Virus record (IMG/VR): IMGVR_UViG_643348564_000003 | Span: 798-64,797 of that record | Source: a virus | Reading direction: 5' to 3' (one strand) | DNA: 64,000 bases | Part shown: positions 8,607 through 48,780 of the stretch, one piece after another | Layout: every line of letters starts with the position of its first letter | How positions within the stretch are numbered: the stretch's first letter is position 1 | Notes under the pieces: generated by a model | The model's input: only the letters and a program-made list of their open reading frames with translations | What the model was told of the DNA's origin: nothing | Database searches by the model: none | Position numbers and translations under genes: made by a program

Positions 8607-8611
8607 CGGCC

Positions 8612-24476: not shown

Positions 24477-26096
24477 TCAATCGTCCTTTTGCGTGACGAG
24501 CTTGTCGGAGACGGTGTCGGGCACGGTACCGGCGCCATTCTCGGGCAGGCCGTACTCCTCCCGCATGTCTCGCTCGCGGGCGCGCTGCCGGTAGACGTCC
24601 TCGATGTCGACGCCGAGGTCGTTGGCGATCATCTCGTCGGTCATAACGCCCATGTTGCGGTAGGTCTCATGGGCCTTGGCGGTCTTGAGATCGTCGGCCT
24701 GGGGCTTCGGCGAGCCACGCCACTCAGCGCGGCAGGCGGCGGTGCGGTTGGCCATGAAGCCGTCGATCCCACCTGGGAACGGGATCGCGCCGCTCTCGAT
24801 CTCCTCCTCGAGCCAGCCCTCGTAATGGGGCTGGCAGAAGGGCGCGACGATGTTCCGGCGGCGGTAGAGAGTGATCTGGAAGATCTCACCCGTCGCCATT
24901 CTGACCGACGAGTAGGTCGCGTTCGTGTAGTCGCCGGTCCCGCTCTCGTAGGTCAGGCCAAGGCAGCGGAGGAGTTCGCGAAGCAGAAACAGCGCTTGGT
25001 CCTTGTAGTCGGACGCGGATCCTTGCGCTGAATGGAACGTGAGCTCTTGGCCGGGAAAGAGGTGCGCGAAGCGACCCTTCTCCCCAAGGTCGATCGTCGT
25101 GCCCTTGTACCAGCCATCCTGCATCGACGCCCAGCAATCGAAGGCCGTCAGGCCTTCGCTGTGCATCCGCGCCTGTTCCTGGGGGGTGAGGAGCCCTTTG
25201 AGCACCTCCTCGGTCGGCTCGTTCGACTTCACGGTCGCCGCGAAGACTGCGCGGATCAGCGCGGCGGTCAGCGTTGCGTCCGCGAGCTGGTCGAACTGGC
25301 GAGCGACCTGGAGCGCCGGCACCAGGGGCGAGATACCCCGGTACTGACCCGCGACGCCGTCGAAGACATGACCGATGCGCACCCGCCCGCCGGCCTCGCG
25401 CGCCCTGACCTCGATCTCGACGTCGGAGAGGCCCTGGCGGCGCCAGAAGATGTAGGATTGGGGCGCCCAGTCCTGATCCATGCGCACGCCTTGGACGAGG
25501 CGAGGGTACTCCGACCGCTGTGATAGGCGGTGGGGCGGAATGAGCCGCACCTTGGTGCCGTACTGTCCTCCAGGTCGGGTCTTCCACGCTGTTTCGGAGA
25601 CGATCTCACCGGGCGCGAACCAGCCGCGGAACGCGGCCGCCTGCAACTGCCCGAAGCTGCGACGGCACTCGATATCGCACTCGTAGGGGTTCCGTGCCCA
25701 TAGTTCGAAGCGCTGCTCGATCAGCCGACCAAGCTTGCTGGCCTCGCCCTCGGTGAGACCGAGGGCGACGGCGTCGGGCAGCGCCGAGAGGCGCAGGCCG
25801 GTGCCGACGGTGTTGGCCACTGCCTGGTCAACGGCGCCAGCGACCCACCCGCTGTTGTGGATGATGTCGTTGGCGCGGCCCGCTGCCCGCCACCACGCCT
25901 GCTGGACCTCATCGGAGGCGTCGCGCACTGGCGGGTTCCAGCCGCGAAACAAGGGTCCATGGCCGCCTCGCATGTAGCCGGACGCCCACGACGGTACGGA
26001 TGCTCGCGGCTGTGGCCGGCTGCCGGAGACGGCCGGCACGCCGCTCGGCATCGAGCCCTGCCGGATCCGAGGCACAACCGACACCATCCGCATCAC
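24477..26096 (-). CDS. Portal protein, lambda gpB family
   Basis: RANDIIHNSGWVAGAV, QYRGISPL and DYTNATYSSVR motifs. Confidence 0.93.
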   Translation of the reverse strand: MMRMVSVVPRIRQGSMPSGVPAVSGSRPQPRASVPSWASGYMRGGHGPLFRGWNPPVRDASDEVQQAWWRAAGRANDIIHNSGWVAGAVDQAVANTVGTGLRLSALPDAVALGLTEGEASKLGRLIEQRFELWARNPYECDIECRRSFGQLQAAAFRGWFAPGEIVSETAWKTRPGGQYGTKVRLIPPHRLSQRSEYPRLVQGVRMDQDWAPQSYIFWRRQGLSDVEIEVRAREAGGRVRIGHVFDGVAGQYRGISPLVPALQVARQFDQLADATLTAALIRAVFAATVKSNEPTEEVLKGLLTPQEQARMHSEGLTAFDCWASMQDGWYKGTTIDLGEKGRFAHLFPGQELTFHSAQGSASDYKDQALFLLRELLRCLGLTYESGTGDYTNATYSSVRMATGEIFQITLYRRRNIVAPFCQPHYEGWLEEEIESGAIPFPGGIDGFMANRTAACRAEWRGSPKPQADDLKTAKAHETYRNMGVMTDEMIANDLGVDIEDVYRQRARERDMREEYGLPENGAGTVPDTVSDKLVTQKDD

Positions 26097-28165
26097 CTGC
26101 CGTTGAGGCGCGCCGCGCGGGCTGCCATGCGAGCCGCGAGCGTCTCGCGGAGGGACTTCTGGGCCACCACGGCCTGGGGCGGTCCGGCGGGCGCTGGAAC
26201 CTCCGGAACCGGCTTCGGGGGCTCCTCGAAGGGCACCTGTGGTGCGCTCCCCGCCGCCGGCAGCGGCGGGGGCGCAGTGTCGTCCCAGTCCCGCATGACG
26301 CCTTCCGGGATGCGCTGCACGTTCAGCAGGTAGCCGGCCGCAGCCGCGAGTGCCTCGCAGTCGAGGAAGTGGTTCTCGGCCGAGATCGGCGTCCAGACTG
26401 GCTTGCCGGCGACGATCTCCCGGACCTCCGAGACGAGCTGCTGACAGTACCGGGCCGGCACGTCGGAGGGCACGTGGAGCGAGCCCGGCCGGCCGATCGG
26501 CGTCAGGAGCCGCGAGGTGACGAGGCTCTTGAAGAAGTCCGAGTCGAGGGTCGCCAGGTCCACGCTGAAGCGCGCCGCCCTGCCCTTTGCGTCGACCTCA
26601 TGCTTCTTCACCGTCAGCGGCTGCGTCCGGGTCGCCCTGCCCTTCGTCGGGCTGACCAGCCAGTCGTAGCGCCGGCAGAACTCGTAGACCTTGTGGACGT
26701 CGCCGGCGTCGGGCTTGTCAGGCCTGAAGCCGGAATCGATCAGCGCCTTCTCGATGTGGAGGCCCCCGTAGGCACTCGTGAGTGCGTCCGCGAGGTCGTC
26801 CCAGATCTCCTCGCCATCGGTCGGGCCAAGCAGCTCCTCGGCCTCAATCAGCCAGGAGGCGCCGCGGGCGCCGAAGCCGCGCACCACGTAGTAGATCGAG
26901 CGCCTCTGGACGTCGATGCCGGCGACGAGGCGCATCACCTCACGCGGCACCTCGCCCAGCCGGTAGGGCACGATCTTCGCCCGCACCGATTCCGCCTTCG
27001 GCGCGTTCATCGGCGCTTCGGCGTAGACCTCGCCAGCCTTGTTGACAGAGCCCTGGATCGCCTCGTGGTCGCTGGTCAGGCGGGCGAGCATCAACTCCTC
27101 GACCCGCTCGCCCCAAGTCACGAAGGGCGAGGCGAGGCCCGAGACCCACAGCGACAGGACCGTGGAATCGGGAGCCTCACCCTCGACCGCACCGTCCGGC
27201 CGGATTGTCTGCCCGGGCGCGACGAACACGCCACGCGCATTCATCTCGGGCTTCAACTCCTCGGTGATGACGCAGCCGTGCACCGGGCAGCAGAGGAACG
27301 TCTCGCGGCGCGCTTGCGCGGGCGTCGCGTCCTTGGGGGCCTTCAGGTCCTTGAGCCGCGGGATGAACCATTCCGAGCAGGACGGGCAGCGCCACGCCCA
27401 ATGGTGGCGGGTGCCGCTCTGCCACTTCACCCAGATCGGGCTGTCGAGGACGGAGGGGTCCGCCACCTTCCAGAATTCGAGGCCCGAGCGCTCGCAGCGC
27501 TCGGTCTCGACCCGACCACGCTTCGGGGTCGAGGTGACCGCAATCTTGCGGTCCGCATAGGTGTCCGCGCGCGCCTTGGCGAGGGTGAAGGGATCTCCCT
27601 CGCCCCGCACGCCGCGGAGCATCTTGTCGTACTCGTCGATGTAGACGTCGCCGGCCTGATCCGAGGCCAGCGAGGTCGCCGAGCCGGCCCAGGCCAGGCG
27701 CACCGACACGCCGTTGACCGTCTTCCGGGTCTTCTTGTTCCGCTTGCCGCGAGCGACGAGGCCAGCGAGCCGCTCGGCCTCGTCGAACAGCTTCATGAGC
27801 CGGGGCTCGAACTGCTCGGAGACGAAATCCTTCGAGGGGCCCACGTAGAGCTGCGGGCGCGGCCGAGTGTCGAGCCGCCAGCCGATGACGTCGAGGATCC
27901 CGTCCGTTTTGCTCGACTGAGTGCCCGTGATGAGCGCGCAGACCTCGTAGCGCGGATCCTCGAAGAACCGCTCGAACGGGATGATGTAAGGGGTTAGCCC
28001 AGGGTCACGAGAACCGGGTACGCCGGCGCTGAGGGGATACACGCGGTTTGCGCGTGCCCACGCGTCGGGGCTTGTCTGCGGCCTTGGCTCCCACAGCTTC
28101 GCCAGCCGGGCCAGCGCCGCCGGCCGTGTCTGCAGCTCGCTTCGCAGCCGCTCCGAAAGCGTCAT
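26093..28165 (-). CDS. Terminase large subunit, lambda gpA family
   Basis: GTQSSKT Walker A; DEYD Walker B; VTSTPK; AGIDVQ nuclease motif; NHFLDCE. Confidence 0.95.
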   Translation of the reverse strand: MTLSERLRSELQTRPAALARLAKLWEPRPQTSPDAWARANRVYPLSAGVPGSRDPGLTPYIIPFERFFEDPRYEVCALITGTQSSKTDGILDVIGWRLDTRPRPQLYVGPSKDFVSEQFEPRLMKLFDEAERLAGLVARGKRNKKTRKTVNGVSVRLAWAGSATSLASDQAGDVYIDEYDKMLRGVRGEGDPFTLAKARADTYADRKIAVTSTPKRGRVETERCERSGLEFWKVADPSVLDSPIWVKWQSGTRHHWAWRCPSCSEWFIPRLKDLKAPKDATPAQARRETFLCCPVHGCVITEELKPEMNARGVFVAPGQTIRPDGAVEGEAPDSTVLSLWVSGLASPFVTWGERVEELMLARLTSDHEAIQGSVNKAGEVYAEAPMNAPKAESVRAKIVPYRLGEVPREVMRLVAGIDVQRRSIYYVVRGFGARGASWLIEAEELLGPTDGEEIWDDLADALTSAYGGLHIEKALIDSGFRPDKPDAGDVHKVYEFCRRYDWLVSPTKGRATRTQPLTVKKHEVDAKGRAARFSVDLATLDSDFFKSLVTSRLLTPIGRPGSLHVPSDVPARYCQQLVSEVREIVAGKPVWTPISAENHFLDCEALAAAAGYLLNVQRIPEGVMRDWDDTAPPPLPAAGSAPQVPFEEPPKPVPEVPAPAGPPQAVVAQKSLRETLAARMAARAARLNGR

Positions 28166-28610
28166 CGATGTGCGTCTCGATCTGCCGGCGAAGCGCGAGG
28201 TCCTTCGTCACCCGCGCGGGGATGCTCATGAGGTCCGCCCGGAGTGGCCCGGCGAATTCGTCCACGATGGCGAGCGCCTCGGCTCGCGCCTCGTTGATGA
28301 GCGCGCCGGAGCGCTCCTCGAGGCGCATGTCGATCTCCTCGGCCCGCTTGTCCTTCAACCGGCTCTCGCCGGCCGACTTCGTGGCCCGCCGCTGCTCGTC
28401 CTGCAGGTACCGCAGTCGCGCCACCAGGGCCTCGCGCAGTCGGTACCGGCCCTTGCCGTATCGCTTGATCACGCTGGCGCGGGCGAGCTTCAGGATCGTC
28501 TCGTCGGAGCAGTCCGCCCAGAGGCAGAGGGTCGTGAGCCCGACCTCGAAATCCATCCGCCCGTCATCGCCGACGACGGGGGTGAAGGGCTGCTCGGGGG
28601 TATCGGCCAT
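28005..28610 (-). CDS. Terminase small subunit (Nu1-like)
   Basis: N-terminal wHTH-like region (GKGRYRLREALVARLRYL), coiled coil; directly upstream of and overlapping TerL. Confidence 0.85.
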   Translation of the reverse strand: MADTPEQPFTPVVGDDGRMDFEVGLTTLCLWADCSDETILKLARASVIKRYGKGRYRLREALVARLRYLQDEQRRATKSAGESRLKDKRAEEIDMRLEERSGALINEARAEALAIVDEFAGPLRADLMSIPARVTKDLALRRQIETHIDDAFGAAAKRAADTAGGAGPAGEAVGAKAADKPRRVGTRKPRVSPQRRRTRFS

Positions 28611-29424
28611 CCACTCCAACCTGAAACTGCGGGAGCGCAGAAACGGGCGGGAGGCGCGCCCTTTTCGGCCGCAACCCCCTCTCTACTTGCTACGGTCCCT
28701 TAAGTTCTTAAAGTCAACCCCTCGACATCGATAAATCGCACTTTTATCTATCTTTTTTCATGAGGCTTGACTTCGATTGACCGACACCATCATGGTCTTG
28801 TCTTCAATCGTCTTGCGTCCAGCCCGGGCCAGTCTGATAACCCTTGCCATATCCTCGACGGCGGTGCGGGTGATGACGCCAGCCTCTCTGCGGGCGGCCT
28901 GCATGTCGCCTTGCAGGACGGCGTGAGCGGCGGCGGTGACAGCCGCCCGCCGCTCGGCACACCGGCATCCCATGCGCGTGATCCCAGCTGATGAAGGCCG
29001 CGAGGGGTGGAGGGATCAGGCTCGCGCGGACGGGGCCTTCGGAAGCCGGGTGGAGAAGCGGCCGGTGAGATTCTCGAATCGGTCATCGCGCGCGGAGTGC
29101 TCGACTGGGATTCGGGGTTTGACACGCTCACCAGCCGGGAGGGTCATCGGCCCGCGTTCGCTCACACGCTGGTTCAGCGGGTTGATCTTCATCAGGGGCA
29201 CCGAGGGGAGAGGAGGCGCACCGGCTGATGTCGCGGGTGATCGCCTCGCTCGCTCGCGCCCCTTGAGGGGGTCGCGATCGAGGCGATCCGGCAGCCGTGC
29301 ATCTCGTCGGGGCTGGAGGGGAGGCGTTGGCGTCTCCGCGCAAGGCGAGCCGTACCTCGGGCGGGACAGAGCCCGATTTCGTGTCGGGCGGCAAGTGCCG
29401 TGCGCTGAAAAACGGGCCAAAACC

Positions 29425-35737: not shown

Positions 35738-36122
35738 GGAGCACCTCGACATCAGCAACTAGCGATAAGGGTCTCACAGGTTGCTCTGTATGGCTAGAAA
35801 TCGCTGCACGTGGGTGCGGTTGAATGCACCATGGCGTGCGTTTTCGCACGTACAATCATAGAATCAGTCCTGATTGGCTCAGCCCATGCGCTGGGCGTGC
35901 AGGGAATTCGCGCTTTGATGAAGCTTGGGTATTCGCCCGGCTGGACAGATTTGTGAGCGCAAAATCATGTTTTAGAGTTGATCGGGCGTTCGACGGCGCG
36001 GCGCGGCAGAGTTGCACCGAGGCCGGAGCAGTGGCAGCGCTATTCTTCTGTGCGCGCTCGGAGCAGGCTCTTGTCCCGGGGGCCTCCCTCAAGCCAGGAG
36101 AGCGTGGGGCCGGAGGAACGCC

Positions 36123-36305
36123 ATGCCGCACCGCGGGTACACCGTGCGGAGGGCACGTGAGGGCTGGGGCGTCTATGTCGTCGGCACGGGTGAGCCCGTC
36201 CGCGTGGACGGGCGGGAGCAGACAGGGCTGTCGAGCGAGAGCGCCATCGAACTTCTCGCGGCACTGAGGGTCCTCGCCTTCATCAGATCTGAGTTCGGCG
36301 AGTGA
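36123..36305 (+). CDS. Small hypothetical protein
   Basis: GGAGG RBS; 60 aa. Confidence 0.6.
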   Translation: MPHRGYTVRRAREGWGVYVVGTGEPVRVDGREQTGLSSESAIELLAALRVLAFIRSEFGE

Positions 36306-36342
36306 CCGGCTACTAATCCCGACAGGATCTTGTCAGCACTCG

Positions 36343-36972
36343 TCAGACGGACCTCCAGTGAGGCAGCTCGGCCTCGCCCATCTCGGCGAGGTGGCGACGC
36401 ACCTGAGCGTCGAGCACGGCCACCAGAGAGCGAGAATCGACCTTGCCTGTCCGCGGATCGACTTGGATCTCGTCCGCGGCCTCGATCGCGATGCGAGCCG
36501 GCCAAGCCAGCCACGCATCGCGGTTCTCGCGCGCCGCGTCGAAAAACGCGGCCTCGGCCGCGGTCCGCTCGATGAGGCGGCCCTGCTGCTCGGCCTGGTC
36601 AAGGCTGCGCTGGCGGGCCTTCAGGATCAGCTCGGCGGTGCGGGCCTTGCCGAAGTCGATGCCGCCGTCCGCATCCTCCACCCCCTCCTCGGCCAGCACC
36701 CGGGCGATCAGGCTGACCGCCTCGCGAGCCTCGGCCGGGGTGCGCACCTCCGCGCGGGGGTGCGTACCGCGGGTGCGCACCGTCTGCGGCTCGGTACGCA
36801 CCTTGGTACGCGCCGGATCGGTTGAGCCCTGCCACGCCTCGCGGACTGCCTCGGGATCAATCAGGCCATTCGGCAAGCGCTTGATCCGGTTGGCCTTGAG
36901 CGCCTTCCGCACCGCGCCCTCGGTCACGCCGAGGACCTTCGCCAGCTGCCTTGCCGAGACGCCGTCGGCCAT
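36343..36972 (-). CDS. Orphan Nu1-like small terminase homolog
   Basis: N-terminal HTH (SARQLAKVLGVTEGAVRKAL), ARTAELILKARQRSLD...GRLIER, RENRDAWLAWPARIA. Confidence 0.72.
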   Translation of the reverse strand: MADGVSARQLAKVLGVTEGAVRKALKANRIKRLPNGLIDPEAVREAWQGSTDPARTKVRTEPQTVRTRGTHPRAEVRTPAEAREAVSLIARVLAEEGVEDADGGIDFGKARTAELILKARQRSLDQAEQQGRLIERTAAEAAFFDAARENRDAWLAWPARIAIEAADEIQVDPRTGKVDSRSLVAVLDAQVRRHLAEMGEAELPHWRSV

Positions 36973-37830: not shown

Positions 37831-38857
37831 GCATGCTTCTCAATCATTGCCTGGCTAGCATTGGTCAAGGTGCTGCTTCCGGAGGATCAGCCACAGTGCA
37901 GCTCGGGTGGGATCCGTGGTCGACCCTTCGACCAACCGTCCAGGGTACCCCGGAAGATTGATTGCTCGGATCCGATGCCCCGCGTAGTCTCACGGACATG
38001 CGGGTGAAGTAGGCGACGGTCAGGGTTCTCACTGATCGGCGGCGGGGCAGCACCGGCCCACCCGCACCAATCTCTTCTCACCCCTACTGCCGTTCGCGGC
38101 ACGGGCCCTGGCCGCAGATCGCGCAGGCGGTGAGGCTGGCAGGCCCGCTGAGCGGGCAGCTTTGGCACTGCGGGGTGTCGAAGTTCTCAACCCTCGGGTC
38201 GATCGCGCCCGCGGCAGTGACGACATCACGGGCGAAGCGCAGGGCTTCTCGCGTCGCGGTGTCAGATCGCTTCGGAGCATGGCGGCGCGTCCCTGAGCCG
38301 CCACGACGGGACCTGGACAAAGGATGCATTCCCCCTGTCGCGGCGCACGGGTCTTCCGGGCCAGGGCCACACCGGAGATGCACGCGAAGCTCGCGGATCA
38401 CGCACAGCGTGGTCGTCCAACAGCCGAGGTAGCATGCTACCGCCATTCGAGCAAGAGGAGGAGCTCGGTCGGCACCCTTGAGGGGTTGAACACAGACGAC
38501 TGTTTGATGAACCAGCGCTCCTGACCCGCGCGGGGAACTTCGCCGCCCCCGCGGCGAGCAACTGCTTTCGAGCGTCGTCCAGACGTTCGATACACGGCCA
38601 GCGCATGGGATCGGCACGGACAGCGCCAGATCGGAACGTGGGCACAAGGACTTGCGCTGCCCTCGTTGCAGGCCAGAGCGATGCCAGAGTGAACCAACGT
38701 CTCTGGACCCGGGCCGAGGCGAGCAAAGAATGAAGCTATGCTGATGCAGCCCCGCAATCTCTCTCCGAGTTTGCAGTACGCTCCCTTCAGCCTTTATACT
38801 AAAACAGTTACCCGTGTCGCGAAGTTGCGACAGGTACTATAGTCGCAGGGTGAAGCC

Positions 38858-41800
38858 ATGCGCAAAACACATGCATTGCTGCTTGCCTTGGGGCTCATTG
38901 GCCAATCGAGCTCGACAGCTCTTGCGTTAGATGCGGCCGGCTACAATACTCGCGGGTACAGCTTTCAGAACAAGGGTGAGTACGATCGGGCGATCGCCGA
39001 CTACAATCAAGCCTTACGGCTCGACCCCAAATTGACCGCCGCTTACGTCAATCGTGGGTTCACCTTCCGAAGCAAGGGTGAGTACGATCGGGCGATCGCC
39101 GACTACAATCAAGCCTTACGGCTCGACCCCAGGTCTGTAATCGCTTACAATAATCGCGGCGACGCCTTCTACCACAAAGGCGACTATGAGCGAGCGATCG
39201 CAGATTATAACCGAGCTTTACAGTTGGACCCCAAGCATCCGATCGTCTACAACAATCGCGGGTTCGCCTTTCACGGCAAAGGAGAGTACGACAGAGCAAT
39301 TGCAGACTACAATCAAGCCCTGCAGCTTGATCCTAATTACACATTTGCATACAATAATCGCGGATTTGCATTTCAGGGCAAGGGTGAATACGATCGAGCT
39401 ATTGCAGACTACAGCCAAGCCCTGCGTCTCGACCCCAAATACGCAATCGCCTACACCAATCGTGGGGACGTTTTTCGGAGCAAAGGTGAGTACAACCGGG
39501 CGATCGCCGACTATAATCAAGCCCTACAGTTCGATCCTAAGCCCATAATCGCTTACAACAATCGCGGTCTCGCCTTTCAGAATATGGGCGAATACGATCG
39601 AGCAATTTCGGATTACACTGAAGCCTTACGGCTCGAACCTAAATACGTGATTGCCGTTGTCAATCGTGCAGATGCCTTTCGGATCAAGGGTGAGTACGAT
39701 CGCGCAATAGTTGACTACGACCAAGCCCTCCATCTTAACCCAAATTACGCTATAGCCTACAACAATCGAGGATTGGCCTTTCAGAACAAGGGTGAATACG
39801 ATCGAGCTATTGCAGACTACAGCCAAGCCCTGCGTCTCGATCCCAAATACGTAATCGCCTTTGTCAATCGCGGGGACGCCTTTCGAAACAAAGGTGAAAA
39901 TGACGTCGCGATCGCTGACTACAATCAAGCCCTCCGTCTAAATCCAAGTTACAGTACTGCCTACAACACTCGCGGGCTGGCTTTTCAGAACAAGGGCGAG
40001 TACGATCGAGCGATTGCAGATTATGAACAGGCCATCCGGCTCGATCCCAAGTCGGCGATCGCCTACAACAATCGTGGGTTCGCCCTCCAAAGCAAAGGTG
40101 AGTACGATAGAGCAATCACAGACTACAATCAAGCCTTACAGCTCAATCCCAAGTCCGCGATAACCTACACCAATCGCGGGTTCGTCTTCCAGAGCAAGGG
40201 TGAATACGATCGAGCAATTGCAGACTATGATCTCGCCTTGCAGTTCGATCCAAAGTACGCGATCGCCTACACCAATCGTGGGGATGTTTTTCGGAGCAAA
40301 GGTGAGTACGATCGAGCAATTGCAAACTATGATCAAGCCATCCAGCTCAATCCAAAATACGTAGTAGCTTACAACAATCGTGGGCTAGCCCTCCAAAATA
40401 AGGGTGAGCCCGACCGGGCGATTGCAAATTACGACCAAGCCCTTCAGCTTAATCCCAGATACATAGTCGCCTACATCAATCGTGGGGATGCCTTTCGCAG
40501 CAAAGGTGAGTGCGATCGGGCGGTCTCCGATTATAATCAAGGTCTCGAACTTGACCACAATAACGTGCTTGCCTACAACAATCGTGGACTATGCTTCCAA
40601 AACAGAGGGGAGTACGACCTGGCAATCGCAGATTACGATCATGCCCTGCAGATTGACCCCAAGTACGCAACCGCCTTTGTCAATCGGGGATTTGCGTTCC
40701 AGAAGAAGAGTGAATACGATCGGGCAATCGCAGATTATGATCGCGCCTTGCAACTCGATCCCAAATCTGCAGTCGCCTACAACAATCGCGGGTTCGCCTT
40801 CCAAAGCAAGGGTGCGTATGACCTCGCAATTGCGGATTACGATCATGCGTTGCTGCTTAAACCTGGGTTAGCAAACGCATATTATCATCGTGGAACGGTT
40901 TTCAGCTTTAAAGGCAACCTTGATCACAGTATCTCTGATTTGAGTGAGGCCATACGGCTTAATCCCAAGTACGCCGAGGCTTATCAAGATCGGGGCATCA
41001 CGTACCAGGCCAGAGGGGAACCGGACCGGGCTCTTGCAGATTTCGCTGAGGCTGCACGGCTGAAGCCTGAGCTTGAGGACGATGCAGCCTTTCTCACGGC
41101 CCGCCGCGAGGCGCAGGCAGCTCAAACTAGCCGGACCGCAGCCGCCGTAGTTGTTACAGCCGTCCAGACCTCGCCGGTCGTGTCTCCGCCCACGATGTCG
41201 GTCATCACACCACTTTCCGAGAGGCGGGTCGCGCTGGTGATTGGCAACGGTGCGTATACCTCCGTCGCCGCACTCGACAATCCGACGCGAGACGCCAGCG
41301 CTATCGCGCGCTCTTTGCGTCAAGCTGGCTTCAAGAGCGTTCGTTTGGAAAATGACCTCCGCTATGATGATCTGCGGCGAGCTCTGAACAGCTTCTCGGC
41401 CGAGGCTGACCAGGCTGATTGGGCCGTGGTCTATTACGCTGGGCACGGCATTGAAGTCGGGGGCACTAACTACCTTGTGCCTGTCGATGCCCAGCTGAAG
41501 ACGGACCGGGCCGTGCAGTTCGAAGCGGTTCCACTTGATCAAGTGCTGGGCAGCATCGAAGGCGCACGTAAGCTCCGTCTTGTGATCTTGGATGCCTGTC
41601 GTGACAATCCGTTCCTGCAGCAGATGACGCGCACAGTTTCGTCACGATCAGTGGGGCGCGGCTTGGCGAAGATCGAGCCAGAGACAAGTGGCACACTGGT
41701 GGCTTTTGCAGCCAAGCACGGCCAAGTTGCACTAGATGTGCAGGATGGTCAGGCAAATAGCCCTTTCGCAACGGCCTTGATCAAGAACATTGCAAAACCT

Positions 41801-41926
41801 GACACTGAGATCCGAAAGATGTTTGGGTTAGTACACGATGATGTCATGGCAAGCACAGGTCGCAAGCAGGAGCCTTTCGTTTATGGTGCCCTCGGAGGTG
41901 AGGATTACTTTTTCAGTATGCGCTAA
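38858..41926 (+). CDS. Exported TPR-repeat protein with C-terminal caspase-like (peptidase C14) domain
   Basis: Signal peptide, 21 TPRs, RRVALVIGNGAY, YYAGHG (His) and ILDACRDNPF (Cys). Confidence 0.93.
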   Translation: MRKTHALLLALGLIGQSSSTALALDAAGYNTRGYSFQNKGEYDRAIADYNQALRLDPKLTAAYVNRGFTFRSKGEYDRAIADYNQALRLDPRSVIAYNNRGDAFYHKGDYERAIADYNRALQLDPKHPIVYNNRGFAFHGKGEYDRAIADYNQALQLDPNYTFAYNNRGFAFQGKGEYDRAIADYSQALRLDPKYAIAYTNRGDVFRSKGEYNRAIADYNQALQFDPKPIIAYNNRGLAFQNMGEYDRAISDYTEALRLEPKYVIAVVNRADAFRIKGEYDRAIVDYDQALHLNPNYAIAYNNRGLAFQNKGEYDRAIADYSQALRLDPKYVIAFVNRGDAFRNKGENDVAIADYNQALRLNPSYSTAYNTRGLAFQNKGEYDRAIADYEQAIRLDPKSAIAYNNRGFALQSKGEYDRAITDYNQALQLNPKSAITYTNRGFVFQSKGEYDRAIADYDLALQFDPKYAIAYTNRGDVFRSKGEYDRAIANYDQAIQLNPKYVVAYNNRGLALQNKGEPDRAIANYDQALQLNPRYIVAYINRGDAFRSKGECDRAVSDYNQGLELDHNNVLAYNNRGLCFQNRGEYDLAIADYDHALQIDPKYATAFVNRGFAFQKKSEYDRAIADYDRALQLDPKSAVAYNNRGFAFQSKGAYDLAIADYDHALLLKPGLANAYYHRGTVFSFKGNLDHSISDLSEAIRLNPKYAEAYQDRGITYQARGEPDRALADFAEAARLKPELEDDAAFLTARREAQAAQTSRTAAAVVVTAVQTSPVVSPPTMSVITPLSERRVALVIGNGAYTSVAALDNPTRDASAIARSLRQAGFKSVRLENDLRYDDLRRALNSFSAEADQADWAVVYYAGHGIEVGGTNYLVPVDAQLKTDRAVQFEAVPLDQVLGSIEGARKLRLVILDACRDNPFLQQMTRTVSSRSVGRGLAKIEPETSGTLVAFAAKHGQVALDVQDGQANSPFATALIKNIAKPDTEIRKMFGLVHDDVMASTGRKQEPFVYGALGGEDYFFSMR
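38933..41074 (+). repeat. 21 tandem 102-bp TPR coding units
   Basis: 34-aa period counted by eye; identical DNA runs of 53-59 nt between units. Confidence 0.9.
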
Positions 41927-41996
41927 CGTATGTGACGGCTGCCTCTGCCCGACCGCCGTCAGTTGATCTGCCGCTGTGGGCGCGGATCAGGTGCCG

Positions 41997-42380
41997 TCAT
42001 CTCCATGCGCAAATTTTTGCGGTTGAGTTGACCCAGCATGCGCTTCCTTCTCGCCTTAAGGTTCCGAGGCTATCATGAGCATGACTCCCTCCGTGTACTC
42101 CATTCCAGCTGCCTTCAGCTGTGCCGTCCTCGTTTTTGTTTATATATGCAAAGAAGCGCGAAGCGCGGCGGCGATCTCCGGTTCCGATTGAAAAACTTCC
42201 ATCTGAGCTAATCTCGATGTTGCACCTGCCGTTAAGATACTTCTTTCCCCCGATTTCAATTAAGCATCGGCCCTCTTCGGATTCGCTGAGGCAATGTCCC
42301 TCGGAGCGCAACGTACAGGTCGCCTCCGCTGGCGAGATTGCGATTAGCGAGAGGACGGAAGAAATAAGCATTACACGCAT
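41997..42380 (-). CDS. Secreted Cys-containing hypothetical protein
   Basis: Signal peptide ending PAEA; six Cys; GSWNG...SHAH...LGTL motif. Confidence 0.75.
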   Translation of the reverse strand: MRVMLISSVLSLIAISPAEATCTLRSEGHCLSESEEGRCLIEIGGKKYLNGRCNIEISSDGSFSIGTGDRRRASRFFAYINKNEDGTAEGSWNGVHGGSHAHDSLGTLRREGSACWVNSTAKICAWR

Positions 42381-42581
42381 TTGTAATTCTCCTCAGTCTG
42401 AGCAAATTGCCCACCCAGGACAATGTTATGTTCAAAGGGCACCCGCTCGTAATCATGCTGTCTTGTCCCGAATACAACTACTCGACTATATCAAGAACAG
42501 ACAAGAACAGCAAAAATCCACATGAAAACATTCGCCGGTTCAAATCTACCGTAACCGCTTTGCCCTAAGCAAACAGCACAA

Positions 42582-43073
42582 TTAGTCTCTCAAGCCTAGC
42601 ATACGGCGGAGTCCCTGCGCTTGGTTGGATGTGACATCGTAAATGCGCCAGCCATCTGGAGCGCGCTTCAGACGGTATGTGACATGCGTGGGTTTGCTGA
42701 AGTTGCGGAGATTCGCTTGGACGACTGCGTATTCGCCCATCATTTTGCTCCGTTCGATCGACAGCTTTGAAACGTTTGCGTCCTGGGCGCCGATGAACGG
42801 ATCAACATCAATGACATTGTCGCCGTTTGATGCACTGGCGAGATCTTTGAGCCATGCCCTTGCAAGCTCTGGCTCGAAGAAATGGTTCGCAGCCGCGCTG
42901 TCCAAGCGAAGTGAAAGCAAATTTGGCCTTTTGCTTGAACCCTGATATTGGGCGTAGACCGCTTGAACGGCAGCTTCCGGCGTCGCAAACTGAGCCTGTA
43001 CGGCAGTCGATACTTCGAACGATATGATACCTGTTGCGAATACGAATAGCAGCAGTCGCATGAGGGCAGCCAT
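42582..43073 (-). CDS. Exported DUF3828/YbjP-like protein
   Basis: Signal peptide; TPEAAVQAVYAQY, DVDPFIGAQD and GWRIYDV motifs. Confidence 0.72.
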   Translation of the reverse strand: MAALMRLLLFVFATGIISFEVSTAVQAQFATPEAAVQAVYAQYQGSSKRPNLLSLRLDSAAANHFFEPELARAWLKDLASASNGDNVIDVDPFIGAQDANVSKLSIERSKMMGEYAVVQANLRNFSKPTHVTYRLKRAPDGWRIYDVTSNQAQGLRRMLGLRD

Positions 43074-43290
43074 ATTAAGCTCCTCAAATTTTTGCTCCGT
43101 CGGCAGGACGGCAGCCTCGCTAAACAAGCAGCGGGCTCTCAGGACCAGTTTAGCAAAAAGCCCCGGCGGAAGACATAGCTCCGCAATCCCTGACATCATT
43201 TACCGCAAAAGCGTTCAATATCAATAGGTTATAAATCTTTATGACACGGTAGTACCGGAAAGCAGTGTGGTGATCCGCGCAGCGCGTGCG

Positions 43291-43359
43291 GAATCCCCCG
43301 TTGAGGGTGCACCGAGTCGTTCTCCGTGCAGGATCCCCCATCGAGGGTGCACCGAGTCG
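43291..43359. repeat. Two-copy tandem repeat, 40-bp period
   Basis: G(A/G)ATCCCCC(G/A)T(T/C)GAGGGTGCACCGAGTCG at 43291 and 43331. Confidence 0.8.
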
Positions 43360-43493
43360 GTCCAAATCATTGACACCGGAGAGATCTTCGCCATACTTGG
43401 AGCAATAGTCTTTCCTGACGCCTTGATTTGCCACCCCCGAGCGAGGCTGGCGGTCGAGATCGCCCGGAGATTGAGTCTGGTCAGGAGGTATTC

Positions 43494-43769
43494 ATGGCGC
43501 ATCATGGCCAATGGATGCTTGCAGCGGCTGTGACTGGCTTCGTGCTGTGCAGCCCGTCCAGCGGATGGAGCGCGCCGGTCCAGGGCGCGGCGATCCTCGG
43601 CTCTCTGCAGGAGAACCCGCTGGTGCAGGATGCGCGGGTCTTCTGCTACAACCGACGAACCGGACGCTTCCTCCACTGGGGGTATTGCCGCCGCGTGTCG
43701 CGGCCGCGGGTCTACTGCATGAACCGGCGGACGGGCCGCTTCCTCCATTGGGGAAGCTGCTGGCGCTAA
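43494..43769 (+). CDS. Small secreted protein with duplicated Cys motif
   Basis: AGGAGG RBS; signal peptide; CYNRRTGRFLHWGYC / CMNRRTGRFLHWGSC. Confidence 0.8.
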   Translation: MAHHGQWMLAAAVTGFVLCSPSSGWSAPVQGAAILGSLQENPLVQDARVFCYNRRTGRFLHWGYCRRVSRPRVYCMNRRTGRFLHWGSCWR

Positions 43770-43946
43770 CCCTCCTCAGCCCTCTACCACCAGCTCAAGC
43801 CGGCGGTTCACCGAGGTGAAGCGCAAACGCCAAGCTAACTACACGGCTTTCAACAGGGGCAGCTATATGAGCAGGAGTGGTCGTTCTCGCTGTGTTGGTC
43901 GAACTTCCGCTCCTGCCGGATGTTGTTGAAAAACTCACTTCGGCGC

Positions 43947-45491: not shown

Positions 45492-47120
45492 TCACCTCCC
45501 TTCCTCCGGCGCCTTGCAGAGCGCGTAGCGGTTGCCCCGCTTCTCGTCGGCGACCATCTCGATGCGCATGCCGGCCACGACGCGACCGCGGACGCCCGTA
45601 AGCCAGCGGCCGAGGCTGCGGGTCGAGATCGCGGACCCCTTGCCGGCCTGGCGCATCAGCACCTCGCGCAAGGACGGCCGCAGCGGGTGCCCGTCGGTGC
45701 CGGTCTCCTGCGCGGCCGCGGCGATGTCGCCGGTGGCGTAGTAGGCGCCCTCGATGAGGTGCTCGCCCCAGGCCGTGATGAGCTCCGACAGCGCGGCGCG
45801 CTCGGGATCCTCGCCCCGCGCGATGTCCATGCTCGCGACCGGGTCGGCCTCGCCGAGCCACACCAGCGCGGAGCGGACCGTGTCCGACCACGCCCCGTAG
45901 GAGCCGATCGGGCCGCAGACCCGCGGCGCGCCGGCGGCGCGGTAGGCCCGGGCGATGGTGAGGGCGGCGGCCACGTAGGCGCCGCGGTCGGCCATCACGG
46001 CCTGCATCGGGTTCGACGCGAACTCGCGCTGCTCCGGCCGCTCCACGCCGGCGTCGAGCCGGCACAGCACGGCCCGCCGCGTCATGTCGCCGATCAAGGT
46101 CAAGTTGTTGCCGGTGGCGAACACCGCGGCCCGGCACTCGATCTCCGGCACCTCGGATCGGCCCAGGATGCGCACCCTGACCACCGGCCGTTCCGTCACT
46201 TGGCAGAGCGCGTCTCCGCCGAGTTCGCCGTTGACGTTGTCGAGCGAGATCAGGGGCGTACCGCTGAGAAGGAGTGCGCCGAGACGCTTCTCGGTCTCCT
46301 CCTCGGTGCGCCCGACCGCCATGACGGCACAGGGGCGCCCGGTGACGATGGCGGCGATCAGATCGACGAGATACGACTTGCCGGTGCCCGCGGAGGAGGC
46401 CCGGATCCCGTGACAGGGCGCCGAGGGCAGCGTGGGCCGCAGCACCGCGGTCAGGATGCCGGACAGTGCCACGGCGCGATCCACGGGCCCGACGAAGGGA
46501 AATTCCTGCAGGGGCCCCAGCAGAAGCGCGAGCGCGGCCTGCGCCTCGGCGCGACTCGGCCGCTCCGGGATCGCCGGCATGACCACGGCCTCGTCCGGCA
46601 TCAGGAAGAGCCGGGTCGCGGGGTCGTAGCCGGGCTCGTCGAGGAGCGAGCCGTCGGGCCGCAGGGTCGGAATCGTGGTGATGCCGGAGATCGGCGGAAG
46701 CCGCCACCGGCCCTCGCGCGACAGCAGGATCGCCACGGCCTTGTCGGGCGGATCGATGTTCACCCAGCGCTGGGCGCGCCCGTCGAAGCGCTGGAACTTG
46801 GCGACCTGGGCCAGGATGTCGGCCAGGGAATCTGCGGTCAGGGATTTCAGCTTGGCGACGAGGGCGAGGCCGCCGTTGGCGGTCGGGGTCGGCTCCACGA
46901 CCGGCCGCACCAGCGCGCCGGCGCGGGCGAACACCGCGGCCCCGCTCTCGATCAGGGCGTCCTCGGCCTCGTCGACGACCCGCGGCAGCTCGGAGGCCAC
47001 CACCTTGATCACCGGCAGGAGACCCGACGATCCCGACGCGCCGCCGGCACCCTGGGCACCGGCATCACGAAGCCGTTTAGCCCGGCGGGCCTGATCGAGG
47101 TCGATCGGCGCCGTCATCAT
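45492..47120 (-). CDS. Replication protein with P-loop (primase-associated helicase-like)
   Basis: SSAGTGKS Walker A, ISLDNV Walker B, ATGNN sensor. Confidence 0.8.
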   Translation of the reverse strand: MMTAPIDLDQARRAKRLRDAGAQGAGGASGSSGLLPVIKVVASELPRVVDEAEDALIESGAAVFARAGALVRPVVEPTPTANGGLALVAKLKSLTADSLADILAQVAKFQRFDGRAQRWVNIDPPDKAVAILLSREGRWRLPPISGITTIPTLRPDGSLLDEPGYDPATRLFLMPDEAVVMPAIPERPSRAEAQAALALLLGPLQEFPFVGPVDRAVALSGILTAVLRPTLPSAPCHGIRASSAGTGKSYLVDLIAAIVTGRPCAVMAVGRTEEETEKRLGALLLSGTPLISLDNVNGELGGDALCQVTERPVVRVRILGRSEVPEIECRAAVFATGNNLTLIGDMTRRAVLCRLDAGVERPEQREFASNPMQAVMADRGAYVAAALTIARAYRAAGAPRVCGPIGSYGAWSDTVRSALVWLGEADPVASMDIARGEDPERAALSELITAWGEHLIEGAYYATGDIAAAAQETGTDGHPLRPSLREVLMRQAGKGSAISTRSLGRWLTGVRGRVVAGMRIEMVADEKRGNRYALCKAPEEGR

Positions 47121-47686
47121 GGTGCCTCGACCAGGATGCGGGGCATCCTGACCTTCCTGAGCATCGCCTCCACGGCCTCGCCGTGGGCGATGTCCTGCGT
47201 CAGCAGCGTGCCGGCTCCCAGGAGCGCAGGCCGGGCAAGGGCGTCGTTGATCACCACCACGCCGCGCCAGCCCGCCGCCAGCCAGCCGACGGGGTCGCGG
47301 TGCACCACGAGCGGCTCCTTGTCCGCGAGCGGGCGCCACAGGCTGTCCTCGCCGAGCATGCCGACCGCGCCGAGCCACGTCGCGAGGCGGCCTGCGGCGG
47401 GATCCCAGGCCACGACGTCGACCAGCGCGCCGCCGGCGTCCCGGGCCGGGATCGTGTAGGCCTCGACCGCGCCCGGCCCTTCGCCGCCGTCGTGCCGCGC
47501 GAAGCCGAAGCGCTGTCGCTTCCCGAACACCACGAGGTCGCGCAGCACCAGGTCGACGCCATGCCGAGCGCAGGCGAGATGCCGGCCCTCGACGCCGCGG
47601 CGCCGGAACGCCGCGAAGTCGGCGCGCCCCAGCGGCAGCCCACGGGCCTGCTCCCGTTCCGGGTCGAGGGCGGGCCGCGCCCTCAT
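47117..47686 (-). CDS. Hypothetical replication protein (possible primase fragment)
   Basis: Coupled to helicase-like gene; LVVHRDPVGWLAAG motif. Confidence 0.6.
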   Translation of the reverse strand: MRARPALDPEREQARGLPLGRADFAAFRRRGVEGRHLACARHGVDLVLRDLVVFGKRQRFGFARHDGGEGPGAVEAYTIPARDAGGALVDVVAWDPAAGRLATWLGAVGMLGEDSLWRPLADKEPLVVHRDPVGWLAAGWRGVVVINDALARPALLGAGTLLTQDIAHGEAVEAMLRKVRMPRILVEAP

Positions 47687-48780
47687 GACAGCACCACCGT
47701 CACGGCATCGGCCGCGCGCGTGAGCCCGGTGTAGAGCCAGCGCCGCGCGGTCTCGCGAAAGGCGCAGCTCTCGTCGAACAGCACCACGCGATTCCACTGC
47801 GAGCCCTGCGCCTTGTGCACGGTGAGCGCGTAGCCGTACGTGAACTCGTCGAAGCCTCTGCGCTGCTTCGGGCTCAGCGCCTCTTCCTGGCCGTGGAAGA
47901 ACTCGCTGCGTACCTCCACCGGGACCGGCGCGGCGTCCGGGTCGTGGTCCGGCATGACCTCAAGTTCGACGATGGCGCCGTCGTTCTGCGCGACGTCGGC
48001 GACCTCCCAGAGCCCGCCGTTGAGCAGGCCCTTGTCCTTGTTGTTGCGCAGGCAAACGAGCCGGTCGCCGATCTCCGGGCCGGCCGGGTCGCGACCGTAG
48101 AGCCGTCGCACCTTCGCGTTCAGCCCGCGCCGGGTCTGGTTGCGACCGACCAGGATCTGGTCCGCGCGGAGCACGGCGCGCTGGCCGAGCGCCGCGCGCT
48201 GGATGACGCGGCTCTCGCCGTAGGCGCCGGCGGCGAGCCGCCCGCCCTGGCGCACGCGCATCGACAGCGCGATGATCGGGTTGTCCGCGGCCTGCCGATG
48301 CACCTCGGTGAGCATGAAATCGGGGTCGCCGCCCGTGAAGTAGCCAGCGCCGTCGACGGGCGGCAGCTGCGCGGGGTCGCCGAGCACGAGCACCTTGGTG
48401 CCGAAGCTCATCAGGTCTCGGCCAAGCTCAGGACCGACCATCGAGCACTCGTCGACGATGACGAGCGCGGCCGATGCGACGGGGCTGTCCTCGTTCAGCA
48501 CGAAGGTCACGCTGCCGTCGCGCCGCGGCTTCGGCCGGTAGATCAGCGAGTGGATCGTGGTGGCGCCGGTGCAGCCCTTCGCCCGCATGACGAGCGCAGC
48601 CTTGCCGGTGAAGGCGGCGAAGAGCACATCGCCTTTGACGCCCTCGGCAAGGTGCCGGGCGAGCGTGGTCTTGCCGGTCCCGGCGTAGCCGCCGAGGTAG
48701 AACGGCGCCCGGCCCGGGCTCTTGAGCCACGCCTTGACGGCGCGCAGGGCCTGATCCTGCTGGGGCGACCACGCCGTCAT
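47683..48780 (-). CDS. RecD-like SF1B helicase
   Basis: GGYAGTGKTT, VDECSM, GDPAQLPPV, EVHRQA, TVHKAQGSQW, YTGLTRA. Confidence 0.93.
   Translation of the reverse strand: MTAWSPQQDQALRAVKAWLKSPGRAPFYLGGYAGTGKTTLARHLAEGVKGDVLFAAFTGKAALVMRAKGCTGATTIHSLIYRPKPRRDGSVTFVLNEDSPVASAALVIVDECSMVGPELGRDLMSFGTKVLVLGDPAQLPPVDGAGYFTGGDPDFMLTEVHRQAADNPIIALSMRVRQGGRLAAGAYGESRVIQRAALGQRAVLRADQILVGRNQTRRGLNAKVRRLYGRDPAGPEIGDRLVCLRNNKDKGLLNGGLWEVADVAQNDGAIVELEVMPDHDPDAAPVPVEVRSEFFHGQEEALSPKQRRGFDEFTYGYALTVHKAQGSQWNRVVLFDESCAFRETARRWLYTGLTRAADAVTVVLS

Follow-up and report, generated by a model that had tools for sequence, protein, structure and literature searches.

A prophage-borne gene for a predicted exported TPR-caspase and its two small neighbours

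The window analysed here is a stretch of 64,000 nucleotides (positions 798 to 64,797 of the IMG/VR record IMGVR_UViG_643348564_000003), in which we took a closer look at three adjacent genes between positions 38,858 and 43,073. The first, on the plus strand, encodes a protein of 1022 residues, in which a signal peptide and 21 tetratricopeptide repeats (TPRs) are followed by a linker and, at the C-terminus, by a Peptidase_C14 domain. A sequence-only reading of this DNA had noted an open reading frame with a signal peptide, TPRs and a C14 protease domain, and the frame itself, Pfam and inspection of the N-terminus all bear this out; a lookup of the exact protein sequence returned no record. The same reading called the two smaller genes a convergent pair. 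They instead lie in tandem on the minus strand, and it is as a pair that they converge with the protease gene. Its assignment of the two as a Cys-rich secreted protein and a DUF3828-like protein stands, on the strength of a signal peptide and a Pfam match, respectively. The features of the locus are as follows:

38771..38800 (+), candidate promoter, TTGCAG / 18-nt spacer / TATACT, from alignment of paralog upstream regions
38858..41926 (+), protease gene, 1022 aa
38858..38929 (+), Sec-type signal peptide, residues 1-24, with ALA/LD-type cleavage, by sequence inspection
38930..41071 (+), 21 uninterrupted 34-residue TPRs, residues 25-738, from Pfam, Tandem Repeats Finder and the repeat register
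41072..41221 (+), Ala/Thr/Val/Pro-rich linker, residues 739-788; the modelled piece starts with a helix of 24 residues, after which pLDDT is low
41222..41884 (+), Peptidase_C14 domain (caspase fold), from Pfam, a PDB match, an AF2 model and Foldseek
41997..42380 (-), Cys-rich protein, predicted secreted, 127 aa, with an AEA/T signal peptide
42582..43073 (-), DUF3828 protein (NTF2-like, Tai3-family), predicted secreted, 163 aa, Pfam E 4.4e-7, above the cut-off

The start codon proposed for the DUF3828 gene, at 43073, has a GAGGAG Shine-Dalgarno box in its favour, and homologues share this initial Met. Three further open reading frames, 42121-42525 (+), 43239-43748 (-) and 43511-43819 (+), were set aside as non-gene-like, with low-complexity translations and no family matches.

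By eye, all three proteins show n, h and c regions followed by an AxA-type site, and these signal-peptide calls were made by inspection, with a hydropathy heuristic used for the homologues. In the protease, a basic n-region precedes the hydrophobic core and the ALA/LD cleavage-type site.

Around the locus lie a large and a small terminase, a portal, a primase-like gene and a helicase, with an integrase at the right end of the window, which supports the earlier view that the locus is borne by a prophage. The three genes sit in the accessory zone of the prophage, where MucR genes are also found. Third-position GC is 0.57 for the protease, 0.52 for the Cys-rich gene and 0.58 for the DUF3828 gene, compared with 0.83-0.93 in neighbouring prophage genes, and the GC of the chromosome is 0.689. 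The low GC of the three genes is real and goes beyond an effect of amino-acid composition; their earlier description as a low-GC, signal-peptide-bearing trio thus holds against the flanking genes and on inspection of the N-termini. A search of the prophage borders returned no convincing att repeat and no tRNA, and in an empty-site comparison the prophage-flanking genes had only paralog-level matches in relatives within the genus, so that no border was obtained.

The protease gene and the phage genes lie on opposite strands. About 150 bp upstream of it are common to one of its paralogs (paralog B, below), including the candidate promoter, which ends 57 nt before the start codon. Position, opposite strand and GC3 would suit a prophage moron, an independent transcription unit of foreign composition set between phage modules. 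A generic promoter scan did not flag the element, and the generic promoter and terminator scan gave no more sites than in shuffled sequence and found no terminator. Using ~12-18% of three raw-read RNA-seq runs with the same species label, and assuming strandedness (first mate antisense), we observed sense-strand coverage at very low depth: the protease gene was covered ~0.4-3.8x and the DUF3828/Cys-rich pair 2-8x. This depth is too low to place transcript ends or a start site at the candidate promoter.

Repeat array and catalytic domain of the protease

Pfam TPR_1 matches 21 stretches of the protease (E 1e-194), Tandem Repeats Finder reports DNA periods of 102 and 204 nt across the same region, and the repeats are in perfect register with a G8/A20/A27/P32 consensus; the count of 21 TPRs given earlier is thereby corroborated. 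Per-position entropy over the 92 repeats of five paralogs was highest at canonical positions 2, 5, 9, 12 and 13, which are the ligand-contact positions of TPRs. The canonical Asn6 is kept in 66 of these 92 repeats.

The Peptidase_C14 match (PF00656) covers residues 789-1009 and model positions 1-224 of 233, with an E-value of 4.4e-37 and 128.4 bits against a cut-off of 21.4. Two motifs carry the putative catalytic dyad, YYAGHG with His863 (codon 41444-41446) and LDACR with Cys914 (codon 41597-41599). Both residues are invariant in 48 homologues and align with the catalytic His and Cys of MALT1 in a PDB sequence match (E 4.8e-13), in agreement with the intact AGHG and DACR motifs recognised in the sequence-only reading. 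The AF2 model of the domain has a pLDDT of 90.9, and its best Foldseek match is again MALT1 (E 2.9e-16), followed by caspase-7, caspase-6 and CED-3; the TM score against MALT1 is 0.80 when normalised to the caspase-only chain. Profile, dyad and predicted fold together place the protease in the caspase-fold family C14 of clan CD.

Asp812 and Asp912 are likewise invariant in the 48 homologues and align with two pocket Asp residues of MALT1, presumably its S1 Asps. Orthocaspases generally have such an acidic pocket (PMC6426788). In the orthocaspase/metacaspase group (C14B), an acidic S1 pocket confers Arg/Lys specificity, and a p10 domain is present in metacaspases and absent from orthocaspases. 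A paracaspase is defined by having Ig-like (and death) domains next to its caspase domain (PMC6426788); no Ig or death domain appears among the 25 Pfam families listed of the 31 that the protease matched, these being TPR-type families, other matches inside the repeat region, and C14. On the families listed, the protease is not a paracaspase as the literature defines it.

Recent paralogs and a very large, predicted exported family

The genome carries five close genes for signal peptide-TPR-C14 proteins, the local copy included. Their C14 domains are 81-84% identical and form one clade in the tree (support 99/95), their TPR numbers are 21, 20, 14, 15 and 22, and homology between the copies ends ~150 bp upstream and ~36 bp downstream of the gene. 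These sequences indicate that the five paralogs diverged recently, with TPR number as their main difference. Of the five, the prophage copy has diverged furthest; its branch is the longest (0.17) and its GC the lowest. Paralogs B, C and D are located in islands close to integrases or next to this prophage.

Beyond the genome, the C14 clade counts at least 7,932 homologues in the database at E <= 1e-20. The top matches are mostly TPR+C14 proteins, and other members are fused to PG_binding_1, Sel1, IalB, Ivy, PDZ/S41, a TRAP substrate-binding protein or PAN. Among the 120 best homologues, 105 have an N-terminal hydrophobic segment by the hydropathy heuristic and 118 have both dyad motifs. A search of 50,697 phage records returned no related caspase, nor did one of IMG/VR with a query that reaches close relatives only. 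The local protease is an ordinary representative of the predicted exported TPR-C14 proteins, which form a very large family in Hyphomicrobiales. TPR-caspase fusions of rhizobia and Methylobacterium have been described with no function assigned (PMC3501461), as the sequence-only reading had said of rhizobia.

The protease probably acts alone in the cell envelope

We favour, as the probable reading of this locus, a stand-alone caspase-fold protease that is exported by the Sec pathway, receives its substrates through its TPRs and is carried as moron-like prophage cargo, with the two small neighbours being separate. The product of 38858-41926 would be a Sec-exported and most likely periplasmic cysteine protease of the MEROPS C14 orthocaspase/metacaspase type. 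Its superhelix of 21 TPRs would recruit a substrate or partner, which the C-terminal C14 domain would cleave, probably after Arg or Lys, with His863 and Cys914 as its catalytic residues. The gene itself would be moron-like cargo in the low-GC accessory zone of the prophage, possibly with its own promoter. We infer the periplasmic location, the P1 specificity, the capture of substrates inside the TPR lumen, and that the enzyme helps to turn over or process envelope proteins.

It is unlikely, in our view, that the protease alone serves as a lysogenic-conversion factor, either by periplasmic superinfection exclusion, in which it would cut ejected phage proteins, or by receptor remodelling. The moron-like position and orientation of the gene inside the prophage, its low-level transcription in the lysogen, the divergence and low GC of the prophage copy and the settings of paralogs B, C and D all fit such a role. 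However, the family is very large and overwhelmingly chromosomal, the searches of phage records and IMG/VR returned no related caspase, and no sequence feature indicates phage proteins as targets. The PADLOC matches also speak against it, being weak and partial: the caspase model PDLC02987 matched at E 1.6e-8 over 154 residues, the other matches were to generic TPR models, and neither small neighbour was matched. With such weak matches, and with no CRISPR, CBASS or gasdermin gene next to the protease gene, we rejected assignment to a known caspase-type anti-phage system (Craspase/TPR-CHAT or protease-gasdermin).

Two further readings of the protease strike us as rather improbable. The enzyme could be exported past the periplasm and act on proteins of a plant host or of competitors, as an effector in symbiosis or competition. 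Some proteases of clan CD are secreted, gingipains and clostripain among them. Methylobacterium sp. 4-46 is among those singled out for high copy numbers (PMC3501461). Yet we saw no secretion-system signal and no neighbouring secretion genes, and the fusions found in the C14 clade (PG_binding_1, Ivy, IalB, PDZ/S41 and substrate-binding protein) indicate the envelope rather than a host. With much the same low probability, the gene could be a functionless passenger, a piece of AT-rich foreign DNA that is decaying while silenced, for instance quieted by the MucR/Ros copies of the prophage. Its very low RNA coverage, its atypical composition and the MucR genes in the same accessory zone would be expected of such a passenger, but the 1022-codon frame is open, the 21 repeats are in register, the dyad and pocket residues are conserved and the sense strand is transcribed.

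The small neighbours appear to form a separate two-gene islet

The Cys-rich protein belongs to a family with four invariant Cys. Its model is all-beta (pLDDT 80.6), and it has no match in Pfam, NCBIfam, PADLOC or PDB folds; its matches in AlphaFold DB and the ESM Atlas are all unnamed. Because the model is all-beta, we dropped the idea that this protein is a Tae3-like amidase. The DUF3828 protein has an invariant QD motif. Both small genes are single-copy in the genome, and they are adjacent and co-oriented in three Methylobacterium sp. 4-46-type genomes.

The sequence-only reading had joined all three exported genes into one prophage-borne periplasmic sensor-protease system, in which the small proteins would be substrate, inhibitor or adaptor. 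We now regard such a system as very improbable. What speaks for it is that the genes are adjacent, alike in their atypical composition and all provided with signal peptides, that Tai3, a DUF3828 protein, inhibits a cysteine amidase and the local DUF3828 protein keeps the QD, and that on a metagenome contig (L051) a Cys-rich homologue lies two genes from a convergent, exported CHAT protease. From this contig, there may be a loose link between the Cys-rich family and clan CD proteases. Against it, none of the four other protease paralogs has either small neighbour, their own neighbours being unrelated to the local pair. No caspase lies within 8 kb of the pair in the three 4-46-type genomes, and in 10 further genomes the nearest C14 or CHAT gene is at least 36 kb from the Cys-rich homologue or on another contig. 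The DUF3828-like and Cys-rich matches are themselves far apart in three genomes that hold both, and the protease gene lies on the opposite strand, probably as a separate transcription unit. These arrangements suggest that the DUF3828 and Cys-rich genes are a separate two-gene islet that lies beside the protease gene by chance. The three-gene reading, though tempting, is unsupported at this locus.

The neighbourhood check called for in the earlier reading covered ~17 contexts, of which one (L051) placed a Cys-rich homologue near a CHAT protease. This result is near the point that the reading had itself set as its refutation, namely that the genes never co-occur elsewhere.

Least probable of all is a prophage exclusion or conversion factor in which the exported TPR-caspase is restrained by the adjacent Tai3-like DUF3828 protein; if true, it would be a phage-borne periplasmic protease-inhibitor pair built from a TPR-caspase and a DUF3828 protein, giving the secreted TPR-C14 family its first function and DUF3828 inhibitors a new class of target.

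Exported TPR-caspases are among the largest uncharacterised protease families in Alphaproteobacteria that live in soil or with plants; databases contain thousands of them, and single genomes encode up to a dozen or more. This locus indicates that the family is, by prediction, extracytoplasmic as a rule, that recent duplication with change in TPR number expands it, and that TPR-C14 copies travel on prophages and islands. A genome whose five paralogs differ mainly in repeat number is a reasonable entry point for finding substrates.

Comparison with known systems

MALT1 (PDB 3V4O, 8V4X) is the best match of the catalytic domain in both sequence and structure, and the local C14 domain aligns with it at the catalytic His and Cys as well as at two pocket Asp residues. 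Unlike MALT1, which is cytosolic, the local protease is predicted to be exported and lacks death and Ig domains.

In DdvA of Myxococcus xanthus, the TPR-CHAT domain of an anti-sigma factor is periplasmic (PMC11506125), so that to place all characterised caspase-like proteins of bacteria in the cytoplasm would be too strong; the earlier reading had said this of caspase defence systems. DdvA and the local protease both combine TPRs with a caspase-fold domain, which in DdvA lies in the Gram-negative periplasm and in the local protease is predicted to lie there. However, the DdvA domain is of the CHAT (separase/Craspase) type with an incomplete active site, and the protein is anchored in the membrane and has an ECF sigma factor as its partner, whereas the local protease is a predicted soluble C14 enzyme whose dyad is complete and whose neighbours include no sigma or anti-sigma gene.

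TPR scaffolds present polypeptides to a catalytic module in the NlpI-Prc adaptor-protease and in the TPR lumen of O-GlcNAc transferase. By analogy, the local Asn6 may form a comparable Asn ladder on the concave face of the TPR scaffold, but there is no homology to the local protease beyond the TPRs.

Tai3, the best-studied DUF3828 member, inhibits a cysteine amidase via a QDX loop (bioRxiv 10.1101/2025.03.19.644130). Like the type VI amidase effector and immunity pair Tae3-Tai3, the local pair combines a DUF3828 protein, predicted periplasmic and with its QD motif conserved, with a small gene next to it, but the local partner is a predicted exported, all-beta, Cys-rich protein rather than an NlpC/P60 amidase. 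It had no NlpC/P60 or other PDB match, and no T6SS context was seen around the local DUF3828 gene.

The closest known relatives are the TPR-metacaspase/orthocaspase fusions, which share the C14 p20-type domain, the His-Cys dyad and TPR_1/TPR_2 repeats (PMC3501461; PMC6426788). Such fusions are abundant in Alphaproteobacteria, Methylobacterium nodulans included, and earlier work already raised the suspicion that their N-terminal hydrophobic segments are signal peptides (Asplund-Samuelsson et al., 2012, PMC3501461; Klemencic et al., 2019, PMC6426788). Compared with these published fusions, the local protease has an unusually long and regular array of 21 perfect repeats, is borne by a prophage and belongs to a recent set of five paralogs with differing repeat numbers.

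Three low-GC genes in a prophage

The sequence-only reading had proposed that three prophage-borne, low-GC genes with signal peptides form one periplasmic sensor-protease system. The genes themselves were as described: the ORFs, the TPR-C14 domains and the motifs were all confirmed, and phage portal, terminase, primase-like and helicase genes and an integrase surround the protease gene. The two small genes are convergent with the protease gene as a pair, but lie in tandem with each other, where the reading had called them a convergent pair. Its DUF3828 start at 43073 held, being preceded by GAGGAG and shared with two homologues that begin at the same Met.

Features of the window
24477-26096 (-), portal
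26093-28165 (-), large terminase
28005-28619 (-), small terminase
36343-36972 (-), second small-terminase-like gene
38771-38800, candidate promoter (TTGCAG, 18-nt spacer, TATACT)
38858-41926 (+), protease, 1022 aa
41997-42380 (-), Cys-rich protein, 127 aa, with predicted signal peptide and six Cys
42582-43073 (-), DUF3828 protein, 163 aa (Pfam E 4.4e-7)
45492-47378 (-), primase-like gene
47683-48780 (-), helicase
~63.7 kb, tyrosine integrase

The low GC is real. GC3 is 0.57, 0.52 and 0.58 in the protease, Cys-rich and DUF3828 genes against 0.83-0.93 in the nearby MucR, NusG-like and helicase genes, so the Asn/Tyr/Lys-rich TPR sequence does not account for all of the low GC. The packaging module lies on one side of the protease gene and the replication module on the other. 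The gene runs against the phage genes, and MucR/Ros and a tail-lysozyme-type gene are found in the same zone; this placement fits a moron-like cargo gene. The candidate promoter falls within ~150 bp of upstream sequence common to one paralog of the protease, paralog B. A search of 50,697 phage genomes turned up no related caspase, which argues that the protease gene is of bacterial origin and was acquired by a phage, rather than belonging to a phage family. PADLOC gave only weak partial matches for the protease, and a search for the prophage ends did not find them.

In three RNA-seq runs under the same species label, coverage was low and strand-consistent, at ~0.4-3.8x over the protease gene and 2-8x over the pair, as estimated from 12-18% of each run and assuming the usual library type, with the first mate antisense to the RNA. 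Plus-strand reads also covered 43224-43825 (4-10x in one run), with a promoter-like site upstream of them at 43370-43397; the minus-strand 169-aa ORF and the plus-strand ORFs of this stretch do not resemble real genes, and the reads, which fall between the pair and the NusG-like gene, may mark a transcript that is non-coding or antisense. At 36000-36900, plus-strand RNA, up to ~15x deep and with numerous reads starting at 36348, overlaps the second small-terminase-like gene in antisense. Left of the prophage, a low-GC stretch (L043:3612-5030 and 8270-9520, within G000:C1:2508611-2514519 of the host chromosome) carries a Schlafen AlbA_2/HATPase_c_4 gene, an RTX-repeat protein and a secreted TPR-only protein, and may be a separate island or the prophage left arm.

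The protease is one of five paralogs

Within the length class covered, a C14-domain search gave at least 7,932 proteins with E <= 1e-20. The top matches mostly combine TPRs with C14, come from Methylobacterium, Bradyrhizobium, Xanthobacteraceae and other Hyphomicrobiales, and are annotated merely as 'caspase family protein' or 'tetratricopeptide repeat protein'. Elsewhere the same C14 clade is fused to PG_binding_1, Sel1, IalB, Ivy, PDZ/S41, a TRAP substrate-binding domain or PAN, all of them periplasmic or envelope domains, and the best 120 homologues mostly have an N-terminal hydrophobic segment (105/120) and both dyad motifs (118/120). Together these features argue that the clade is extracytoplasmic and catalytically competent as a rule. 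TPR-caspase fusions are, as the reading had noted, already known: TPR_1 ranks among the four commonest fusion partners of prokaryotic metacaspases, and a high copy number was singled out in Methylobacterium nodulans ORS 2060 (PMC3501461). The protease is a further member of this functionally uncharacterised kind.

Its host genome (8.84 Mb in 8 contigs; chromosome 7,772,460 bp, GC 0.689), in which the window occupies G000:C1:2522984-2586983, has 13 C14 matches. Five share the signal peptide-TPR-C14 architecture, with C14 domains 81-84% identical, and form a single clade (support 99/95) sister to other Methylobacterium proteins. They have 21, 20, 14, 15 and 22 TPRs, and homology between them stops just outside the gene.

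The other four paralogs on the host chromosome
G000:C1:2517421-2519907, 15 TPRs, ~3.1 kb left of the window start
G000:C1:3038773-3041157, 14 TPRs
G000:C1:6299486-6302656, 22 TPRs
G000:C1:7434437-7437403, 20 TPRs

All four are below genome GC (0.59-0.63); one lies just past the tail-fibre end of this prophage and two are 4-13 kb from tyrosine integrases. Paralogs C and D are 95% identical and have rearranged flanks in common.

The two small genes behave as a separate unit

The proposal of a single three-gene system fared less well. The genome has one copy each of the Cys-rich and DUF3828 genes, and the genes beside the other four paralogs bear no relation to them. The closest homologues of the Cys-rich protein (75% identity), from three Methylobacterium sp. 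4-46-type genomes, are each encoded immediately downstream of a gene for a DUF3828 protein (57% identity). That pair, too, is a lower-GC islet (GC3 0.64-0.68 vs ~0.95). A PHB depolymerase/AAA_28 pair flanks it on one side and an AI-2E transporter on the other, and only the two genes themselves match the window at the DNA level; no caspase was found within 8 kb in the three genomes. The pair occupies different genomic places in two Methylobacterium lineages, at 41997-43073 (-) of the window and at L048:7195-8381 (CP000943.1). More divergent Cys-rich homologues have varied contexts. Across 10 genomes of the same family with a Cys-rich homologue, the neighbourhood check proposed by the reading put the nearest C14/CHAT gene at a distance of 36 kb to several Mb or on another contig, or found none, and in all three genomes with both DUF3828-like and Cys-rich matches these lie far apart. 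The sole other juxtaposition is on a metagenome contig, L051, where the gene of a Cys-rich homologue and that of a convergent CHAT protease are two genes apart. At L051:5190-7623 these two proteins share their first ten residues (MRLSTFIVLA), perhaps because the signal-peptide segment was duplicated or because the contig is an assembly chimera.

This neighbourhood evidence argues that, in the Methylobacterium nodulans / 4-46 lineage, the two small genes behave as a unit of their own, and that the protease behaves as an independent gene; a three-part system is not supported by the comparisons. The likeliest reason for their adjacency is that foreign genes for exported proteins have accumulated in the accessory zone of the prophage.

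Four Cys are invariant in 17 homologues of the Cys-rich protein, whose model is a small all-beta domain (pLDDT 80.6) with no PDB match; the domain also occurs fused within larger unnamed proteins. The best-studied DUF3828 member, Tai3, is a periplasmic immunity protein to the Tae3 amidase and works via a QDX motif (bioRxiv 10.1101/2025.03.19.644130; PMC3924330). The QD is invariant and present in the local protein, and a binding pair with the Cys-rich protein is plausible. Unlike in Tae3-Tai3, the partner is not an NlpC/P60 enzyme; it is a novel all-beta, disulfide-type protein.

Architecture, probable specificity and a proposed mechanism

Domains of the protease
Residues 1-24, predicted signal peptide of typical Sec type (basic n-region, hydrophobic core, ALA|LD site)
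Residues 25-738, 21 uninterrupted TPRs of 34 residues, perfectly in register (TPR_1 in 21 stretches, Pfam)
Residues 739-788, linker rich in Ala/Thr/Val/Pro
Residues 789-1009, Peptidase_C14 (Pfam E 4.4e-37)

The protease is predicted to be exported, in line with the reading. DNA periods in the TPR array are 102 and 204 nt. The 204-nt super-period spans 38941-40515, and two TPR types (NNRG-F/L-AFQ-N/S-KG and TNRGD-A/V-FRSKG) tend to alternate, an alternation that suggests array growth by two-repeat units.

The active site is intact, as first read: His863 (AGHG) and Cys914 (DACR) align with the catalytic His-Cys pair of MALT1, which is the top match by sequence in the PDB (E 4.8e-13). With 48 homologues as input, AlphaFold2 gave a model of residues 740-1022 (pLDDT 90.9) whose best structural match was again MALT1 (E 2.9e-16), followed by caspase-7, caspase-6 and CED-3. 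Asp812 and Asp912 are invariant among homologues and align with MALT1 residues that we take to be its S1-pocket aspartates. Because of these aligned aspartates, and because an acidic pocket is general among orthocaspases (PMC6426788), the protease likely cleaves after Arg or Lys. Published definitions reject a paracaspase identity, as the protease has no Ig domains.

The five paralogs together have 92 repeats, in which variation is greatest at canonical TPR positions 2, 5, 9, 12 and 13, the ligand-contact positions of the concave face; canonical Asn6 is retained in 66/92 and position 7 is Arg in 92/92. The Asn ladder, variable contact residues and flexible linker suggest substrate capture by the TPR lumen. 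Extended segments of envelope proteins would be captured within the lumen of the long superhelix and then presented to the active site of the caspase domain, to which the flexible linker would join it, and differences in TPR number between paralogs would tune reach or partner range. Such an arrangement could be likened to NlpI-Prc, an adaptor-plus-protease, in self-contained form, and its TPR use to that of O-GlcNAc transferase, which employs TPRs. For periplasmic caspase-fold domains a characterised precedent already exists in DdvA (PMC11506125).
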